The notes below the pieces were generated by a model. The model was not told the DNA's origin. It did no database searches and worked only from the letters and a program-made list of their open reading frames with translations. 64,000 bases of DNA from Candidatus Bathyarchaeota archaeon (GTDB lineage Archaea; Thermoproteota; Bathyarchaeia; Bathyarchaeales; Bathycorpusculaceae). Location: the NCBI GenBank assembly GCA_963772455.1, contig CAVYXJ010000012.1, positions 128,001 to 192,000 on the forward strand, given 5' to 3'. This document shows positions 1,219 through 43,789 of this stretch, in pieces. Position 1 is the first letter of the stretch. Each line of letters begins with the position of its first letter. Both the position numbers and the translations under genes were made by a program.

Positions 1219-2169
1219 GTGACAGAGAATCAAAAAACAAGCCAAGATGGAAACATAAATCTACAAATTGACAAAATAAAAAAGCAAATTGGTGAAGCTA
1301 ACAACCAAATTAAGAAGTACGTTGAGAAACGAAACCAATTGCATGAGCAGGTACGCAAGTCTCGCGACGAAATTAATCAAATGAAAATTGAAAGAGATAC
1401 CTTGAATGAGAAGGTAAGGTTGCTTAAGGAACAAAGAGATCTTATCAGAGTCAAAGCAACCCCAATTATGGAAGAAGTAAAGGTTATAGATGAAAAAATC
1501 GCGGAACTCAAAAAAACCGTGCCACATGTGAATCAACGTGCATTGCAAGAAGAGCTCGATGCGGTTGAATGGAAAATTTCTACCACTTCAGTTGACCTTC
1601 AAGAAGAGAAAAGGTTGGTTGGTGAAGTGAAAGAACTTGAAATTCAGTTAAAAGGTTACAAAAAAATAGATAAAAAACATCAAAAAATTAAAGAATTAAT
1701 TTCTCAACGCAAAGTTTTTGATGCGCAGGCAGATGTATTTCATAAAGAATTAACAGATTTAGCCCAGAAGAGCCAAGAATTGCACACTAAAATGATTGAA
1801 AAAATAACCGCTTTGAAAAAGGATAAGGCTGAAGCTGATAGCTTGCATCAAGCGTTTGTTAAAGCAAAGGATCAAAACGCTCTTTGGTATGAACAAATTA
1901 AGCAGTTGATTGATCAAAATAGAGGGTTGAGGGTTGCAGTTAGAGAATTTGATTTAACTAAGAGAAAAGAAGAGGACGCTAAAAGACAAATAGAACAAGC
2001 TAAGTGGAGAGAAGAACAAGCCAAAAGAGCAGTTAAAGAAAAAGAAATTAAAGAAAAAATAGGGTCTGAAGCTCGCGAAAAACTGCAACGAGGCGAGAAA
2101 GTCAATTGGGAAGAGTTCCAATTCATGTTGGGCGATGAAGAAGAGGACGAAACAAAAGCACAAGATTAA
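1219..2169 (+). CDS. Archaeal coiled-coil protein (COG1340-like)
   Basis: K/E/Q-rich heptads; EWKISTTSVDLQEEKRLV and AREKLQRGEKVNWEEF motifs. Confidence 0.8.
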   Translation: MTENQKTSQDGNINLQIDKIKKQIGEANNQIKKYVEKRNQLHEQVRKSRDEINQMKIERDTLNEKVRLLKEQRDLIRVKATPIMEEVKVIDEKIAELKKTVPHVNQRALQEELDAVEWKISTTSVDLQEEKRLVGEVKELEIQLKGYKKIDKKHQKIKELISQRKVFDAQADVFHKELTDLAQKSQELHTKMIEKITALKKDKAEADSLHQAFVKAKDQNALWYEQIKQLIDQNRGLRVAVREFDLTKRKEEDAKRQIEQAKWREEQAKRAVKEKEIKEKIGSEAREKLQRGEKVNWEEFQFMLGDEEEDETKAQD

Positions 2170-2207
2170 AGTCAACTAGCAGCATTAAAATGGGTTAGAG
2201 ATTCGAG

Positions 2208-3440
2208 ATGGCTAAACGGGAAACGCAACAGCAGACGCAAAAGCGTATCCTAATTTTATGTGTTGATAGAGATGGAGATCTGGAAGTTAAAGCTGCTGTT
2301 AAGACCCCTTTGCTTGGAAGATCCTCTAACCTCGATGGTGCAGTTGCATTAGCTCTCAAAGACCCTGAAGAACCAGACGCTAATGCTATGTTTGAAGCAG
2401 TTAGACTTTTTGACCGGTTGCAAGATGAGAGGCAACCAGATGAAACCTTTGAAGTAGCAACTATTTCTGGAAACGATTTAGGCGGTGTAAGTGCAGATCG
2501 AAAACTAGTTTCAGAGCTGAATAGTTTGCTTGGTTCTTTTAACGCTAATGAAGTTATTCTGGTAACTGACGGATATTCAGATGAGGCGGTTTTGCCGCTA
2601 GTAGAATCTAGGGTGCCAGTTTCTTCTGTTAGACGCATAGTAATAAAACATAGTGAGTCAATCGAAGAAACTGCAGCGGTCTTCACAAAATATATTCGTT
2701 TACTTGTAGATAATCCAAGATATGCTCGAATGGCTCTCGGATTACCCGGTATTTTGGTTTTAATTTTCGGTATTTTGTGGGCGATTGATAATTTTCTCTA
2801 TAAAGGTGCAATTTACTATTTCGGCATTGCCTTTGTAATAGTTCTTGGCGGCTTCCTTTTGCTCAAAGGTTTTGGAGTTGATAGAGCAACTAAAGATGCC
2901 TACAAATGGGCAAAAGACTACACACCCCCAGCACTTCCGATACAATTTTCTAACTACACAATTATTGCGGGAATACTTTGCATTGCTGTAAGTGTTTATT
3001 TGGGGATAGTAAACGTTAACATCAGCGCAGCACCGTTTCCCAGCGACTTAGGTGGCTGGTTGGGTGCTACACCAAAAATAGCCACGTTCTTCATTAAAGG
3101 ACTCGATACTTTGCTAGTTGTGGGTATAGCCATAATTCTCATTGGAAGAAGCATACGATTATACTTTGAAAAGGATTCAAGATTATTGCGAAATGCTGCC
3201 TTAATCGTTTCAGTTGCTTGGTCATATTGGGTTCTAGAAGGAACAGCGAACGTAATAATTCATTATTATCAAGATTCATCAGCAGTTGTTGGTTTAAATG
3301 ATCCAATTTTCGCGAGTTTTCTATTTACAATTATTGTTGGCATACTAATTGGTGTAGCTTCTGTGCTCCTGATTTACATAGTTAACAGGTCAGCAAAAGG
3401 TTTCTTTAAGAAAAGAGAAGAAATAACAGAAGAACTGTAG
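2208..3440 (+). CDS. DUF373 family membrane protein
   Basis: LILCVDRDGDL..K, DPEEPDANAMF, LVTDGYSDE, IVIKHSESIE, then multiple TM helices. Confidence 0.9.
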   Translation: MAKRETQQQTQKRILILCVDRDGDLEVKAAVKTPLLGRSSNLDGAVALALKDPEEPDANAMFEAVRLFDRLQDERQPDETFEVATISGNDLGGVSADRKLVSELNSLLGSFNANEVILVTDGYSDEAVLPLVESRVPVSSVRRIVIKHSESIEETAAVFTKYIRLLVDNPRYARMALGLPGILVLIFGILWAIDNFLYKGAIYYFGIAFVIVLGGFLLLKGFGVDRATKDAYKWAKDYTPPALPIQFSNYTIIAGILCIAVSVYLGIVNVNISAAPFPSDLGGWLGATPKIATFFIKGLDTLLVVGIAIILIGRSIRLYFEKDSRLLRNAALIVSVAWSYWVLEGTANVIIHYYQDSSAVVGLNDPIFASFLFTIIVGILIGVASVLLIYIVNRSAKGFFKKREEITEEL

Positions 3441-37757: not shown

Positions 37758-38463
37758 TCTTCAATTAGTGGATTTGAAAAAAAGTTACCGAACTGTAAAA
37801 GCATTAAAATCTGTTAATCTTACGTTGAATGGAAACAAGATAATAGTCCTCCTGGGCGTTAACGGCGCAGGAAAAAGCACCCTAATGCGCATTCTCGCAG
37901 GTTTAGAAAACGCTGATGAAGGAACAATTCTTTTCAACAATCAAAAAACAACTGCCAAAGAACTTCGCCAAGTCTCCACTTTAGTTTTTCAAAAAACAGC
38001 AATGTTCACCATGAATGTCTATGACAACTTGGCATATGGATTAAAAATTAGAAAAGTCCCCAACGAAGAAATTGAAAGGAGAGTACCTGACGCGCTGGCA
38101 GCTGTTAGGCTTTCTGATTTTGAAAAAAGACGCGCAAAAAAACTTTCTGGAGGAGAACAGCAGCGAATTGCTTTGGCACGGGCGTTTCTGCTGGATTCAA
38201 ACGTTCTACTTTTGGACGAGCCTACGGCGAACTTGGATCCAAACAGTGCCTTAATCATCGAGAAAGCAATTGTGAGTAAAAAAAATAATCAACGAATCAT
38301 AATAATGGCAACTCATAATCTTAATCAGGCAAGACGAATGGCCGATGAAATAGTTCACATCCATGACGGAGAAATAGTTGAGGTTGCAAATCCCGATGAT
38401 TTCTTTGAGAATCCTAAAAGTGAAGTGACTCGCAAATTTATAAATGGAGAATTGGATTTCTGA
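37747..38463 (+). CDS. tupC: Tungstate ABC transporter ATPase
   Basis: GVNGAGKST, LSGGEQQR, LLLDEPTANLDP, THN; overlaps tupB. Confidence 0.9.
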   Translation: MSVNLQLVDLKKSYRTVKALKSVNLTLNGNKIIVLLGVNGAGKSTLMRILAGLENADEGTILFNNQKTTAKELRQVSTLVFQKTAMFTMNVYDNLAYGLKIRKVPNEEIERRVPDALAAVRLSDFEKRRAKKLSGGEQQRIALARAFLLDSNVLLLDEPTANLDPNSALIIEKAIVSKKNNQRIIIMATHNLNQARRMADEIVHIHDGEIVEVANPDDFFENPKSEVTRKFINGELDF

Positions 38464-38553
38464 AATTAATTTATATGTCAATTATAGTTTCTGCTTTCTT
38501 GATTTTGCAACAATGGTTTTATCTTTATACAATATAAGGTCAAGTTAGTTTAG

Positions 38554-38982
38554 TTAGGGTGCATGTAGCCAACCGCGTCCACTTTTCTTAGGTTGTTTAC
38601 CTTTTGGTTTTTTTGGAGCATATTCTTGGGCACGTTTGGTTTTTTGGCCTTGATTTTTAGTTATTTCTGTTTTTACAAATTTTCCCCATCCGCCTTCGCG
38701 ACGATCTGGTTGAATGTAGCGTTCGGGGTTTTCGACCATGTGTGTTTCAAGGATTTCTTTAAAATTCAGTGGTTTAAAATCCCTTGTGGCATGGATGATT
38801 GTGCCTCGTTCTACACGTAGAGACTCATAGTTTGCAACTGAGATGCCTTCGGCTCGGACTTCGTCATTTACGCGTTCGTTCCAAAGTTGTTTCCATTGAA
38901 CTTTGAGTTCTTCAACCAGTTCTTTCTGAGCTTTGGCTTTGTCCTCAGTTGGTTTGTTGGCTGAATCTTCTTTGCCTTGCAA
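38554..38982 (-). CDS. Hypothetical soluble protein
   Basis: 142-aa ORF with W..LW.ER..D..RAEG and GGW.KF motifs. Confidence 0.7.
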   Translation of the reverse strand: MQGKEDSANKPTEDKAKAQKELVEELKVQWKQLWNERVNDEVRAEGISVANYESLRVERGTIIHATRDFKPLNFKEILETHMVENPERYIQPDRREGGWGKFVKTEITKNQGQKTKRAQEYAPKKPKGKQPKKSGRGWLHAP

Positions 38983-39093
38983 GTTGACTTCTCTTCCATT
39001 TTAAGTTGTTAATTTATTCTTTGTTAGATTATTTAACTTTATTTAACATCCATTCTTAATCTTTGAAATGTTAATGGTGATGTTTTGGTGTCG

Positions 39094-39561
39094 TTAAATG
39101 CTGCCGGAAATTACTATGTTGAAGTCGAAATCGGATATGTCGCCTGTGTCAGCAGCTACGTTTAACGTGAGTGTTGCGGGTACTATGGCGCCTGCTTGGA
39201 GTGTGGCGCTTTCTTTATTCCACGTTAAGAATAGGCTTGACGTGGCGGATGGTGGATTTCAATCTTTGGCAGTCATGCTTAGGGTTTCAGTTATGTTGCC
39301 TGTATTTTTGACGTAAATTGTTTTTGTGGCAACGAATGGCGTAATCAGTGTACCCCAATCAATATTTGAGCATAATGTTGTGGCTTGCGAGTCACTGTAG
39401 ACACTTATGTTAACTGTGTTGGTTGTTATACTTCCGCCTAGGTGACCTTGTGCTGGGATGTTTTGTTGGGCGTTTAATATTCCTGCTGTTACTACTGAGA
39501 GTGCTATTGCAATGAAAACTAGGGTTATGAGTGGGATTATTGCTGCTTTTTTTAGTTGCAT
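39094..39561 (-). pseudogene. Secreted beta-sandwich protein with an in-frame TGA at 39259-39261
   Basis: IDWG, IYVKNTGN..TLSM..KD-[TGA]-NPPSA....LTWN...ATLTLNV...FDFNIVISG* stays in one frame. Confidence 0.75.
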
Positions 39562-39748
39562 AACTTTTTCCTAAATTCATTGTGTATAGCGTCTTAATAA
39601 ATGCTATACATTTCTGATCAGTAACAAGAAATAAAAAAAAGAAATTCAAGCAACAAAGTCCCTAAAACACGAATTATTTGCATTTAATAATTTCAACTAT
39701 TCTAACTATAATAAAAAATAGTTAAACTGCTCAAAGAAAATCCGGGAA

Positions 39749-40024
39749 TCAAGTGTCAAGAATCGCTTTTAATTCGCAATCAGGCGTGTAAATGATTACG
39801 CCGTCGGGATCTTCTTGTACGGATAAACTACGTTTTTTGGCAACTTCTCTAACCTTTTGTTTGTCTGTTTCAGGAATTATTCCTTTAATGTTGATGCGGT
39901 AACCAACTGAATCGCTGTCATTTGGGGTTTCAAAAGAGACGCATTCAGGCGATAAGTCATTGCATTGGCTCAGAAGCTCTTTTAAGTAGATGATTGCCTC
40001 TGATCTATCCAACGGAATCCCCAA
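39749..40024 (-). CDS. Small M[DN]RxEA-family protein
   Basis: LDRSEAIIYLKEL...GYRINIKG...VAKKRSLSVQE..GVIIYTP; paralogs elsewhere in the window. Confidence 0.75.
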   Translation of the reverse strand: MGIPLDRSEAIIYLKELLSQCNDLSPECVSFETPNDSDSVGYRINIKGIIPETDKQKVREVAKKRSLSVQEDPDGVIIYTPDCELKAILDT

Positions 40025-40215
40025 TTGTCTCTTTCTTGTCTTTTAATATAAAAGGTTTGCACAAACATTTCCATATAATTAGCAGCGTTTTGTTTCATTT
40101 GCATGGTAAAGATTGTTACGTACGTATCAAAAATGTGTCTAACCGTAAAATTTTATAGAAAACTTATTTGATACCTGATCAAAAGGCGATATTTGAAGTT
40201 CAGCAGCTTAGCGGT

Positions 40216-40238
40216 TGTGATTTCAAAGTGTAATCACA
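40216..40238. promoter_or_regulatory. Palindrome TGTGATT-N9-AATCACA directly upstream of a TTTATATT box
   Basis: Perfect 7-bp inverted repeat; TATA-like box at 40243-40250. Confidence 0.55.
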
Positions 40239-40270
40239 TTGTTTTATATTTTTGAGACAGCTAACCAGTT

Positions 40271-40410
40271 GGTAGGAATGCAAGGGATAGCCAACAAAAG
40301 TTGAGCGAATCCGGCTGCTAAATAAGGAAAGGCCGTTGCCCACCTACCCTTTTGGCCTAACCTGTTTGGCGTATGGCTTGGTTCGCTTAACTCTTCATTT
40401 TGGGTTGTCT
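40271..40410 (+). ncRNA. Candidate novel ~140-nt structured RNA
   Basis: ~40-bp interrupted hairpin with many G-U pairs; TATA box upstream; T-rich tract downstream; no ORF. Confidence 0.6.
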
Positions 40411-40515
40411 GAAAAGCAATTTTAACTAATTTTTGTAGCGGTAGATTTCCAATATCAGGACTTTTTATTAAATTTGCATAAAAGAAAAAATGTTAAACTA
40501 TTCATAAACGATGTT

Positions 40516-40786
40516 TTGCGTCAGATTGCGCAACATGATAAAGCCCCTTTCACACTGTCAAAAGCCCAACAGCGATAACTGTTGAACGTTAAACGTTCAT
40601 ACGCTAACAGCACAACGCTAAAAGCTCCTCAAATCATCCGCATTTCAGCGTTTAACGGAGAAATTTTGCTCGTTTCGCTTCGACTTTGGATGTTAAAAAG
40701 TGCGAAAATTCTGGATGTTCGTCCGATTGATAGCGATACTGAAAACAGAAACGATGTTATGCTTTTGTGTCGCAATCTGAAAGCAA
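40516..40786 (+). ncRNA. Candidate ~270-nt multibranch structured RNA
   Basis: Nested long-range stems tcagattgcg/cgcaatctga, tttca/tgaaa, ctgtcaa/ttgatag. Confidence 0.5.
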
Positions 40787-41005
40787 TAAGCTATTTTTAG
40801 ACATCTCAACAAATTGGAAACATTATGTGCTTCAACTATCGCAAGGTTACATTTTTAATCTGGTTGATTGCAACTTTTAATGCTAATGGCCTATTTTTCT
40901 CGCTATTTCTAAAGACTTATTGCTTAAACTAAATTTTTTCTAACTACTGTTTGAACCTCTTAACGAAGACTAATGACCCAAAACTGATAGTAGTCATTCC
41001 TGCTA

Positions 41006-41092
41006 GTGAATAGCAGTGAGAAAAAAGATTACCTCGCGCGTATTAAGAAAAAGAAGCCTGAGCCCATTTCCATAAAAATTCCAACGGATTAG
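41006..41092 (+). CDS. 28-aa basic micropeptide (not in ORF track)
   Basis: MNSSEKKDYLARIKKKKPEPISIKIPTD*. Confidence 0.3.
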   Translation: MNSSEKKDYLARIKKKKPEPISIKIPTD

Positions 41093-41172
41093 GAGAACGC
41101 TTCGGATTGATTATTGTTAAACCCGGATACTGAAGAATTAAATGGAACAAAAGGTGAAAACGATTTGAAAGA

Positions 41173-41417
41173 TGAATGGTTCACTGAAAAAAAAATCAAA
41201 GACCGTTCACCATGGGGCAAAAGAGAGTTCAGCCTTCGATTTACCGGCGATGCGCGTTAATTTACCGTATTTTAGGCTGAAAAAACGTCCGATTTCACAT
41301 TTTGAGGTCGGGCAAGAATTCCTTTGCATTCTTCTTTATGGTATTATTCGATCTCAGACTGCCAGGGCCCCCGGTGACTTCTGTCGTGGTTTTCCCCGCA
41401 GGTATTCTGCAAAGAAT
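41173..41417 (+). ncRNA. Candidate structured RNA, four consecutive stem-loops
   Basis: tgaatggt/accgttca, ttcagcct/aggctgaa, gtccgatttca/tgaggtcgggc, ctttgca/tgcaaag; locally GC-elevated. Confidence 0.45.
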
Positions 41418-41484
41418 CTTAATTGCTTTTTTGGTGGTTTAACAAGCAAGCTTTAAATTGCTTAAGTACACACAAGAATAACCT

Positions 41485-41720
41485 ATGAATCGCCAGGAAA
41501 CAGTCTCCTTGCTAAAGGAAATGATAGCTGTTTGTGGGTCATTCTATGATGCTCGAGCAGTATCCGTTCAAAATGGTGGGAACAGTGATAATTTGGGAAC
41601 TCTCATGTTTACTGGGTTCCTAATCCCTCAGATATCGAATGTATACAAAAAATACTTGCTGAACACATTTTAGAAATGGTTACTATTAACGGACGCTCTG
41701 TATTTCGGTCGAAAAAATAA
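41485..41720 (+). CDS. Small M[DN]RxEA-family protein; frameshift near 41595
   Basis: MNRQETVSLLKEM...; shifted frame HVYWVPNPSDIECIQKILAEHILEMVTINGRSVFRSKK*. Confidence 0.65.
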
Positions 41721-41847
41721 ATTCAGTTATAACTTTAAAATTCTTCTTGCAATTCTTGCATGTGTAAGCTTCAATGTTGAAGACCTGATTTGTAAGCGAT
41801 TTGTGGGGTTTCGCCACTTCTTCACCACAGCTTGGACAACTAACCAT
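41686..41847 (-). CDS. Small zinc-ribbon protein, Cren7-like (not in ORF track)
   Basis: MVSCPSCGEEVAKPHKSLTNQVFNIEAYTCKNCKKNFKV... Confidence 0.65.
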   Translation of the reverse strand: MVSCPSCGEEVAKPHKSLTNQVFNIEAYTCKNCKKNFKVITEFIFSTEIQSVR

Positions 41848-42104
41848 GCAAACTCTCCAAAGTTAGAATAAACTAATGATCTGTGATAAAAGTATTAGAT
41901 GGTTTGTTGGCACATATTGAAACAACAAACAAAACTGGTGGAAATTAAATTATAATGGAAGATTTGAGGTTCAAAAAGGGTTTGTACGCTCAATCAATTT
42001 ATTAATTAACCTCTAAGATAATGAGTCTAAGTCACTTGTTTTTGCAGAGGATAAGATCATGTAAACAGAATTTGATATGGGAGTTCTGTTGGTGAGTTGT
42101 TGGT

Positions 42105-42324
42105 TAGTTTTGAGTTATTGTTTGTTCTTCTTGGTTTGGAATAACCATTAATTGTATTGGGTCTTGTTCTGTGTGTTTTTAGTAGTTGGTGTTTGTGGTT
42201 TTTTGTGGTTTGTGTTTCCGATCCAGTATAGGCTCCAGCCAACTATGAAGGTGAAGGCCATTATTGGCGCTAAAAGGAGTATGGTGAGTTTGCTTCGTTT
42301 TTTTCTATTATGGCGTGTTGTCAT
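42105..42324 (-). CDS. Small single-TM protein, frameshifted
   Basis: AGGTGA RBS; MTTRHNRK..SKLTILLLAPIMAFTFIVGWSLYWIG...IQLMVIP..E. Confidence 0.5.
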
Positions 42325-42760
42325 TTCGTCACCTACTACATCTTGTTACTTAATTCTTAATATATAAATTTTGTTAATTAGCAATGCACTATACTTCTGT
42401 AGAACACAAATATTAGTAAAAAAAAATCACAAATCAAATTAACAATATCAAAGGTCAACAAGTTATTTTTTACGATAAACTCACAACTTTTGTGGGTTCA
42501 GTCGTAAGACGCCTTGACCCATTACTGGATGTTACCCCAGTTTTAGATTGTTTAATATTTTAGTCTGCAAGAAAAAGATTTAGGGATTCTGATAACTAAA
42601 AGAAAACATAAATGATAGTCGTCAGTAATACGGCTAAAACTTCAATTTTCCAATCTCAGCACAATTGAAAATAAGCAAGTAGGAAGTAATTTTTCGATAG
42701 TTATATATGCGTAATGTCATCCAATTGAAGTGAAGTTTTGGGTTCTGAGGCAAAAATAAC

Positions 42761-43789
42761 ATGGCAGCGCTAAAAAAACGAAATTTCATAATCATTACCG
42801 TTATTATCTTGGTTATAGCCATCATTTTAAGCTCATTTGTATATCTCAATTCCCAAATCCCCTACAAAGGCAACATAGAGACCGTAACAATCGGCGTGTT
42901 CCCTTCTGAATATAATTCCTTAATTTATATTGCAAACGACCAACAATTCTTCTCAAATAATGGCCTCAAAATAACATTGAAGAACTATCCTTCTGGAGCT
43001 GCTGCTGCGGGAGGGATGTTAAATGGGGAAGTAGACATCGCTACGGCTTCCGAATTTGTCGTTGCTGACAATGCACTCCCGAATGCAGATCTCAATGCAT
43101 TAGGGAGCCTCTCACAATACCTCAATTTGTACTTGGTTGCAAGAACTGACAAAGGAATTAACGGCATTTCAGATTTAGTCGGCAAAAAGATTGGGCTTAC
43201 CATTGGAACTGGCAATCAATTTTACCTTGGCAGATTCCTCGAACTTAACGGGATAAACCAAAATCAAGTTACACTTGTTAATGTCAATTTTGCACAAGCA
43301 CCAAATGCTCTTGCAAACGGCACAATAGATGCAACAATTACGTTTCAGCCATACATAAACCAAATAAAAAGTCTTCTCGGCAACGCAATCTTAGTGTGGC
43401 CAGCACAAGCTGAACAATTCGGTTACTTCGAAGCTATCAGTACAAACACATGGGTAACCACGAATCCTGGTCTAATTGAACGGTTTTTGAAGGCAATTAT
43501 TCAGGCTCAAAACTTTAATATCAACAACCAAAACATGGCAATATCAATCGTGTCAAAGGAACTAAATTATACAACCTCATACACATCCTCGGTTTGGGCT
43601 GATTATCGTTATTCAGTTACGCTTGACCAATCCTTCATCTTACTCATGCAAGATGAAACCAGATGGCTAATTAACAACAACTTAACTACTGCAACTTCTG
43701 TTCCCAACTTTTTCAATTATATTTATGTTGATGGGTTAAAATCTGTCAGTCCTGAATCAGTCAACATTATAGGCATGGGAACCCCATGA
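42761..43789 (+). CDS. NMT1/SsuA/NrtA-family substrate-binding protein (no transporter nearby)
   Basis: LIYIA....FF..NGL, GEVDIA, ISDLVGKKIG, L.NGTIDA...F.P, NP...ERFLKA. Confidence 0.88.
   Translation: MAALKKRNFIIITVIILVIAIILSSFVYLNSQIPYKGNIETVTIGVFPSEYNSLIYIANDQQFFSNNGLKITLKNYPSGAAAAGGMLNGEVDIATASEFVVADNALPNADLNALGSLSQYLNLYLVARTDKGINGISDLVGKKIGLTIGTGNQFYLGRFLELNGINQNQVTLVNVNFAQAPNALANGTIDATITFQPYINQIKSLLGNAILVWPAQAEQFGYFEAISTNTWVTTNPGLIERFLKAIIQAQNFNINNQNMAISIVSKELNYTTSYTSSVWADYRYSVTLDQSFILLMQDETRWLINNNLTTATSVPNFFNYIYVDGLKSVSPESVNIIGMGTP

Follow-up and report, generated by a model that had tools for sequence, protein, structure and literature searches.

A candidate small-RNA gene of Bathyarchaeia belongs to a lineage-restricted family with a constant hairpin base and a variable leader and loop

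Y RNAs are small RNAs that are associated with Ro60 in animals and some bacteria. The RNA described here, which we call Bathy-6 RNA, resembles Y RNAs in its size range (about 100–130 nt), in the presence of several paralogues per genome, in the combination of a conserved basal stem, which includes a bulge and wobbles, with a variable pyrimidine-rich loop, and in its 3′ oligo-U end and simple TATA-type promoter unit. With the multi-copy bacterial LhrC, RsaE/RoxS and Qrr sRNA families, it shares the arrangement of paralogues on a common scaffold with a promoter control site, pyrimidine-rich loops that could pair with purine-rich ribosome-binding sites, and an end formed by a hairpin and a U tail. 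It may also be compared with 6S RNA, as a rod-like and probably independently transcribed RNA of similar size, and with the phi29 pRNA, in that the loop of the copy analyzed here has its complement elsewhere in the RNA, an arrangement that might in principle link molecules. With respect to archaea, the repeated intergenic ncRNAs sRkB and sRkC of Pyrococcus abyssi are reported to have BRE/TATA promoters at the expressed copies, K-turns bound by L7Ae, and one locus tied to the 3′ end of an IS605 OrfB gene (PMC3124441). Bathy-6 RNA is similarly archaeal, is similarly found at multiple intergenic loci and is similarly preceded by BRE/TATA promoters, but it has no visible K-turn (tandem G-A), and OrfB is not among its commonest neighbors.

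The copy analyzed here is located on the + strand at 40216–40435 of the window, that is, the whole 64-kb stretch of DNA that was analyzed. The parts that an earlier note had listed on reading this DNA, which were a palindrome, a TATA box, a leader, four stems, a loop and T runs, were all found, each at the coordinates given in what follows. The upstream end is formed by an operator-like, dyad-symmetric palindrome, TGTGATT-N9-AATCACA (40216–40238), which adjoins on the upstream side a BRE/TATA promoter, ACATTGTTTTATATT (40239–40250), with the TATA box TTTATATT at 40243–40250; the promoter sequence is conserved in the family as ACATTATYTTATAT. In archaea, the distance from the TATA box to the transcription start is well established, as is the role of oligo-T as a termination signal. 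Based on the usual distance, the RNA start is placed about 25–30 nt past the TATA box, probably near 40272–40276, and the predicted single-stranded, purine-rich 5′ leader would accordingly extend over 40272–40298, from this presumed start. With such a start, the leader would be about 25 nt long, and part of the GGTAGG segment in GGTAGGAATGCAA (40271–40283), which is the leader of the earlier note, may go untranscribed. In the subfamily to which the window copy belongs, AATGCAAGGGATAGCCAAC in the leader is nearly invariant.

The core of the element is a rod hairpin (40299–40392), which is delimited by folding and covariation. It consists of a basal 18-bp wobble-rich stem (40299–40316/40375–40392), a 4-nt bulge on the 3′ strand (40371–40374), a middle helix (40317–40327/40361–40370), an apical helix (40330–40335/40353–40358) and a 17-nt pyrimidine-rich apical loop, TTGCCCACCTACCCTTT (40336–40352), in which a C-rich part is followed by a U tract. 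An outermost stem (40285–40292/40403–40410) was additionally present in the fold of the window copy. The 3′ tail, CTCTTCATTTT (40393–40401), holds the first oligo-T run (40398–40401), a T4 run 5 nt past the hairpin, and further T runs are present at 40420–40423 and at 40431–40435 (T5). The run at 40398–40401 is likely to be the terminator and the T5 run at 40431–40435 may provide an alternative 3′ end, so that the predicted RNA would be about 130 nt long (from 40272–40276 to 40401), or about 160 nt if it ended at the T5 run, at 40435.

The minimum free energy fold of 40265–40435 on the + strand, determined by RNAfold, included the four stems and had an energy of −59.2 kcal/mol, compared with a mean of −44.6 kcal/mol and an SD of 4.3 for shuffled sequences, resulting in a z score of −3.39, with 1 of 200 shuffles as stable as the native sequence. 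Thus, folding on the + strand was far better than that of shuffled controls, a comparison on which the earlier note had staked its proposal. The − strand was folded with an energy of −41.0 kcal/mol and a z score of −0.71, and 45 of 200 shuffles equaled the native sequence. G-U pairs accounted for 14 of the 59 pairs in the 171-nt fold and for 7 of the 33 pairs in the core hairpin at 40299–40392, and such pairs, which are possible on the + strand only, were conserved in the family, for example, in 53 and 44 of 57 copies. The G-U pairs and the covariation described below support the reading of the element as a structured RNA of the + strand.

A second copy was found in the same assembly, on contig C23, with 85% identity across 218 nt. 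Because this contig is collinear with 35904–59257 of the window, at 87–96% identity, it corresponds either to a second strain or haplotype or to a large duplication, and its copy is not an independent paralogue. When the window copy was compared with that on the 93%-identical sister contig over 181 columns, 8 differences were found in the 86 paired columns, with pairing always kept, and 21 were found in the 95 unpaired columns. The changes in paired columns consisted of two double changes (U-G to G-U and A-U to G-C) and four one-sided ones, and no pair was broken; a simulation indicated that 8 random substitutions would keep all pairs with a probability of 2e-4. Directly 3′ of the element, the sister contig carries a gene for a Na+/H+ exchanger (antiporter; PF00999), whereas the window has 840 unrelated, unique bases instead (40503–41342) and lacks the antiporter gene. 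The RNA unit is, hence, kept with or without the antiporter gene downstream.

A BLAST search with the 220-nt element in 150 genomes of the taxonomic family identified no relatives, as the matches obtained were short, were located within protein-coding genes and were dismissed as chance. With a covariance model (R1) that was built from the window and C23 copies, 42 of the 61 genomes searched in the genus gave matches, and a single genome often had several of them. Furthermore, one genome per prokaryote species was searched for the stem by means of an exact IUPAC pattern, which gave 30 records, all of which were confirmed by R1 (30/30). Of these, 27 were titled Bathyarchaeota or Bathyarchaeia, and the other three were titled Candidatus Bathycorpusculum, “uncultured archaeon” and “Nitrososphaerota archaeon”, one each, which supports a host within the Bathyarchaeia; the same pattern had 0 matches in viral contigs. 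The copies were collected in an alignment of 59 rows, 57 of them distinct, identical records that had been fetched twice being removed before counting, and a second model (R2) was built on a MAFFT alignment of the 57 distinct copies. At E ≤ 1e-4, R2 was matched at 124 places in the genus, spread over 33 of the 41 genomes sampled, with 0–12 copies per genome. The existence of homologs, without which the earlier proposal would have been in doubt, is thus supported by covariance models. Since the remaining 8 of the 41 genomes, 5 of which are 93–100% complete, gave no match to R2, the RNA may be dispensable or may have diverged past the reach of the model there. In an even sample of the taxonomic family, R2 was matched in 4 of 151 genomes. 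These were the window's own genome and two others of its genus, together with a genome of another genus whose weak match has, by eye, the same architecture. Outside the taxonomic family, 0 of 135 genomes in a class-wide sample were matched. The window's own genome has four copies, which are diverged from one another (106.6, 96.7, 90.0 and 64.9 bits against R2), the window copy giving the 106.6 bits, with an E value of 5.9e-27. The conserved hairpin base, GTTGRGCGGRTCYGGCTGCTAA...TTAGCRCAYGGCTYRRTCCGCTTAAC, by which we define the Bathy-6 rod-RNA family, is present in the window copy, as are the palindrome and BRE/TATA box upstream and the oligo-T downstream, by which members are also recognized.

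Rfam 15 gave 0 matches at the gathering score across the 64-kb window. At E ≤ 10, 5 weak matches were obtained in 38400–42800, none of which overlapped 40216–40435, and at E ≤ 5 the sole match on the element among 20 homologous loci was to mir-26, which was dismissed as chance because of its E value of 3.8 and its location on the opposite strand. These gathering-score and permissive scans of the window and 20 homologous loci are in line with the earlier suggestion that the RNA is novel. The 64-kb window contained no tRNA. In addition, literature searches on ncRNAs or sRNAs of Bathyarchaeia/Bathyarchaeota found no description of such an RNA. We rate the family as new, lineage-restricted and previously undescribed, although of a known general kind.

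When 21 close relatives were fitted to R1, 91.0% of cells were paired and changes on both sides were present in 18 of 43 pairs; 0 of 500 shuffles reached the observed values, and slid controls gave 27–53% paired. The MAFFT alignment of the 57 copies yielded an RNAalifold consensus of 22 pairs with 93.4% of cells paired, compared with 26–46% for slid controls. Double changes were observed in 12 of these 22 pairs and in 104 cells, compared with 39 expected, and 0 of 500 shuffles reached the observed values on four of five measures, with 4 of 500 doing so on the fifth. The covariation of the core hairpin is, hence, strong, as judged by RNAalifold and shuffles. Application of RNAalifold to the 59-row alignment kept the three inner helices, with 28 pairs, 16 of which had double changes; the outermost stem at 40285–40292/40403–40410 and any leader-tail pairing were absent from the consensus. 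The proposal of four stacked stems, therefore, holds in full for the fold of the window copy and for the inner three in the family, but not for the outermost one, which is outside the consensus.

The core hairpin has a length of about 92 nt in the family, and its parts differ in how they are conserved. The basal stem is conserved in sequence as well as in pairing and is nearly invariant among paralogues, and it keeps its G-U pairs (in 44–53 of 57 copies), one pyrimidine-pyrimidine mismatch and the 4-nt bulge on the 3′ strand. The middle helix exhibits free covariation. The leader and the loop differ among at least four or five subfamilies, and leaders are strongly conserved inside a subfamily. 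Their mean composition in the family is 69% purine for leaders and 74% pyrimidine for loops, and a run of four or more T is present in 41 of 57 loops.

Because one copy (L053) is without upstream sequence, promoter counts were made on 56 copies. The upstream module nnTTGTTGCT-TCA-nnn-TGTAAC-AACATTATYTTATAT was aligned in 56 of 56 copies. The outer TGT/ACA of its dyad was kept in 51–52 of 56 copies, the inner positions were changed symmetrically (T-A in 26 and G-C in 11), and 77.6% of cells were paired, compared with 30–54% when the dyad was slid. In 56 of 57 copies, the first paired base is preceded, at a distance of 46–66 nt (mode 57), by a TATA-like hexamer. An HMM of the palindrome and TATA box, run on the window's own 2.4-Mb assembly, identified the four RNA copies only (E 7e-8 to 3e-4), the next-best match having an E value of 0.14. 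At the other end, 54 of 57 copies had a T run of at least 4 at 4–8 nt past the final paired base, with a length of 4 in 23 copies, 5 in 23, 6 in 6 and 7 in 2. That of the window copy is of 4 only, which we counted against the explanation favored below. The conserved palindrome, TATA box and oligo-T end suggest, as the earlier note supposed, that the RNA would be a unit of its own. Small ORFs in the leaders (of MQGIANKS and MVPDKLGGSGC types) were also considered and were rejected, because indels of 1 or 2 nt shift the frame between close copies, as judged by eye.

The explanation that we tentatively favor regards the element as a small, independent RNA gene of the + strand and as a paralogue of a lineage-restricted family, whose RNA would act in trans by means of a protein handle common to the family and recognition parts specific to each paralogue. 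That it is instead a cis-acting leader, riboswitch or attenuator of a downstream gene (for TrpRS, mevalonate kinase or the Na+/H+ antiporter) seems very improbable, although the hairpin followed by a T run is attenuator-like and many loci have a co-directional gene 150–500 nt on, which is that for TrpRS at 8 of 10 plus 2 scanned loci, for mevalonate kinase at 2 and for the antiporter at 2. The neighbors were counted over 70 copies, which include orthologous positions and are, hence, not independent; the nearest downstream ORF had the same direction as the RNA in 32 copies and the opposite direction in another 32, and 6 copies had none, so that the 64 copies with a downstream neighbor were evenly divided between the strands. 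The upstream neighbors were opposite in 42 and on the same strand in 26. The 126 neighboring proteins were spread over 97 Pfam families, and no conserved neighboring gene or partner protein was found among them, the frequency of the commonest one, TrpRS-type synthetase (9), being attributable to the conserved synteny of one orthologous position. At the TrpRS loci, moreover, a separate conserved TATA-like block was seen by eye in the interval from the RNA to TrpRS, its distance to the RNA being variable. The RNA itself has a dedicated promoter module, and no antiporter gene follows the window copy. Since its neighbors are unrelated and the downstream orientation is 32/32, the RNA gene is, as judged from the genomic context, independent of its neighbors and not a leader. 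A T-box-like or aromatic-amino-acid control was rejected as well, because the GHMP kinase is mevalonate kinase, the orientation is 32/32 and TrpRS has its own promoter block. As to other positions in the window's own genome, one paralogue is divergent from the 16S rRNA gene, at a distance of about 740 nt, and another is located 182 nt downstream of the L11-L1-L10 genes. It is hardly credible that the element acts at the DNA level or is selfish, whether as the end of a MITE or IS, as a cruciform, or as an inverted repeat that is decaying and does not function as RNA. Its multi-copy nature, with the number varying from 0 to 12, would be in accordance with such an element, as would the copies of one genome (G151) that flank duplicated blocks or are located in PolB/Rad51-like/ligase clusters. 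However, folding and G-U pairs are strand-specific, substitutions are compensatory, the copies of the window's own genome are diverged over 64.9–106.6 bits, positions are syntenic across species, for example, beside TrpRS, the 25 most frequent neighbor families include no transposase, and viral contigs had no match. The IS or MITE end that the earlier note had named as an alternative is, hence, not indicated by the divergence of the copies, the strand-specific fold or the commonest neighbors.

The remaining explanations concern what the RNA does. In the one that we favor, the dyad operator adjoining the BRE/TATA promoter would be the binding site of a dedicated transcription factor, and the transcribed unit would be composed of a purine-rich single-stranded leader of about 25–30 nt, an imperfect rod of about 92 nt, a variable pyrimidine-rich loop with a U tract, and an oligo-U end. 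The RNA would act in trans, a reading drawn from the invariant irregular stem, the variable leader and loop, the U tracts and the shared operator. The invariant basal stem may both stabilize the RNA and provide a protein partner with a handle that all members share, and the leader and loop, which are variable between subfamilies, may give each paralogue its specificity, either by pairing with targets rich in purines or pyrimidines or via protein binding at the U tracts. A search for complementary targets in the window's own genome gave best matches of 12–13 nt, which is the chance level. Against the rRNA operon, the leader gave a duplex of −25.0 kcal/mol, with 3 of 40 shuffles as good, and for the loop 33 of 40 shuffles were as good, neither result being significant. 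Mimicry of the 16S anti-Shine-Dalgarno tail, which reads GATCACCTCCT, by the loop was rejected, as a 5-mer of the tail was present in 17 of 57 loops, compared with 13.1 for shuffled ones, and 140 of 1000 shuffles reached 17. This shortage of convincing complementary targets in the own genome and the rRNA operon fits the alternative that the RNA is a protein decoy or scaffold with no base-pairing targets, like Y RNA, 6S RNA or an Sm-site RNA, whose irregular stem and U tracts sequester or chaperone proteins, and so do the several paralogues per genome, the conservation of the sequence, wobbles, mismatch and bulge of the basal stem among them, and the U tracts in 41 of 57 loops and past 54 of 57 hairpins. 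We consider this possible but doubtful, because the strong conservation of the leader inside a subfamily suggests sequence-specific recognition, a large central bubble such as that of 6S RNA is absent from the fold, Rfam gave no match to Y RNA, 6S RNA or any other family, and a search for TROVE/Ro60 (PF05731) in the 92%-complete genome of the window gave 0 matches, with positive controls matched in 2 genomes. A further alternative, which we regard as quite improbable, is that the RNA is self-associating or is a conformational switch, its leader pairing with an apical loop, either that of a second molecule or, after bending, its own, to give head-to-tail oligomers or two states. The complementarity of the loop to its own leader that the earlier note reported is real in the window copy, with a duplex energy of −16.0 kcal/mol (RNAduplex), and six further copies have similarly strong duplexes, the range for the 7 of 57 being −15.7 to −17.7 kcal/mol. 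The energy is, however, −7.1 kcal/mol in the C23 copy, in which the leader GGTAGG is replaced with ATTAGC and the loop CCTACC with CC-ACT. The z scores had a mean of −0.69 against random genomic 28-mers, which is explained by the purine-rich leaders and pyrimidine-rich loops of the family, and were below −2 in 3 of 57 copies; the mean was −0.27 against loops of other subfamilies. For the ten proposed pairs in the 21 close relatives, the covariation score was 0.177, compared with 0.118 for shuffles (1 of 500 reached it), and both-side-changed cells numbered 10, compared with 5.4 (4 of 500 reached it). On the other hand, 81.1% of cells were paired, compared with 78.1% for shuffles, pairs 11/98 and 13/93 were unpaired in 9 and 8 of the 21 relatives, respectively, and the GGTAGG segment is possibly partly upstream of the predicted start. 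We, therefore, read the leader-loop pairing as a probable feature of a subclade or a coincidence and not as a principle of the family, although it may still apply to the window copy. Of the interpretation originally proposed, a structured, independent and regulated RNA is thus supported, as a prediction, by the comparison of copies, but oligomerization or switching is not retained as a family trait.

With these results, the differences from the systems named above can be specified. Bathy-6 RNA differs from Y RNAs in that the genome is without a TROVE/Ro60 gene and the RNA is without an Rfam Y_RNA match, in that its 5′ leader is free, whereas the two ends of Y RNAs are paired, and in its archaeal host. 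Compared with LhrC, RsaE/RoxS and Qrr, its hairpin is much longer (about 92 nt), no targets were found in its own genome, the similarity of its loop to the anti-Shine-Dalgarno was not above that of a composition-matched control, and no relationship in sequence or Rfam was found. It is unlike the phi29 pRNA in that the complementarity is present in 7 of 57 copies only, no phage context was seen, with 0 matches in viral contigs, and no Rfam pRNA match was found. Where 6S RNA has a large central bubble between long helices, resembling an open promoter, the fold of Bathy-6 RNA shows no more than the 4-nt bulge and some small internal loops; moreover, Bathy-6 RNA occurs in several copies, the loops of which vary, and Rfam gave no match to 6S RNA. 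Thus, as judged from Rfam and TROVE, Bathy-6 RNA has the defining features of neither Y RNAs nor multi-copy bacterial sRNA families. We also considered a bolder and rather unlikely idea, in which the copies would be the RNA subunits of an undescribed archaeal RNP. The handle of about 18 bp would be bound by a lineage-specific protein, the leader of about 25 nt and the loop of about 17 nt would be exchangeable guides, and up to 12 “programmed” paralogues per genome would be under one transcription factor via the TGT-N-ACA operator; the leader-loop complementarity in the subclade of the window copy could add head-to-tail assembly.

To our knowledge, very few structured non-coding RNAs of uncultured archaea are known. 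The lineage in which this family is found is globally abundant in sediment, soil and gut and is not yet routinely grown. For this lineage, the family offers a secondary structure supported by covariation and a clear split between constant and variable parts, and it is a candidate for a new Rfam family. Its promoter-operator module is a ready regulon marker, and these features provide handles for finding a protein partner, a regulator and targets in the Bathyarchaeia. If the RNA is an ordinary regulatory sRNA, the gain would be modest; if it is true that the constant handle recruits a dedicated effector, the family would represent a new class of archaeal RNP.

Window positions 35904-59257 were collinear with, and 87-96% identical to, positions 1-32124 of C23, a 39-kb contig of the same assembly (G000) that carries a sister copy of the RNA, and the SRP RNA gave two matches with identical scores in this assembly, on contigs C2 and C5. 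Judging from this collinearity and the doubled SRP RNA, the bin appears to contain either a second strain or contigs that are redundant. Immediately after the RNA, the two sequences differ by an indel, in which window 40503-41342 stands against positions 1877-3220 of the C23 locus L002 (C23 4692-6197). The C23 side carries a Na+/H+ exchanger gene (PF00999), its sole occurrence in the assembly, whereas the window side consists of 840 unrelated bases that are unique and contain no long ORF; across window 39650-42750, no ORF of at least 100 aa was found. Upstream of the RNA, small minus-strand ORFs of 142 aa (window 38554-38982), 100 aa (39259-39561), and 91 aa (39749-40024) were conserved in C23, all being without a Pfam match.

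Between the RNA and the synthetase gene TrpRS, a conserved block, GAAAAAAGCATATATGACAAAACACCGTTTCTCAT..AAAAGGCRCTGGTGAA, was located, by eye only, about 60-100 nt 5' of the TrpRS start codon in each of the loci L021, L023, L024, L027, L028, L030, L031, and L037; it is probably the TrpRS promoter with a conserved 5' UTR. Further family members were observed beside Nop5 and TrpRS, and one, at L071, was located after the L11-L1-L10 ribosomal protein genes.

Of the 12 copies in genome G151, five were present within two similar gene clusters, L100 (C2, an entire 11-kb contig) and L101 (C4:13000-30500), which contain a family-B DNA polymerase, a Rad51-like ATPase, a small ATP-dependent ligase, and PQQ beta-propeller proteins, together with several ORFs without Pfam matches. 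The clusters may represent an integrated or extrachromosomal element bearing RNA copies. At L099 in another genome (G154:C4:1-12400), Nop5, the RNA, and NrdD were duplicated in inverted orientation around an aspartate/ornithine carbamoyltransferase gene, with one of the NrdD copies being broken into two frames; this arrangement could reflect either a genuine inverted repeat or an error of assembly.

Two family members were found to adjoin rRNA genes in divergent orientation: a paralogue in the window's own genome (C9:177546-177657, plus strand), next to the 16S rRNA gene (C9:175231-176724, minus strand), and a member next to the 5S rRNA gene at L037:952-1071. Together with the copies beside the L11-L1-L10, Nop5, and TrpRS genes, these positions give an anecdotal hint that the RNA family has translation-related neighbourhoods.
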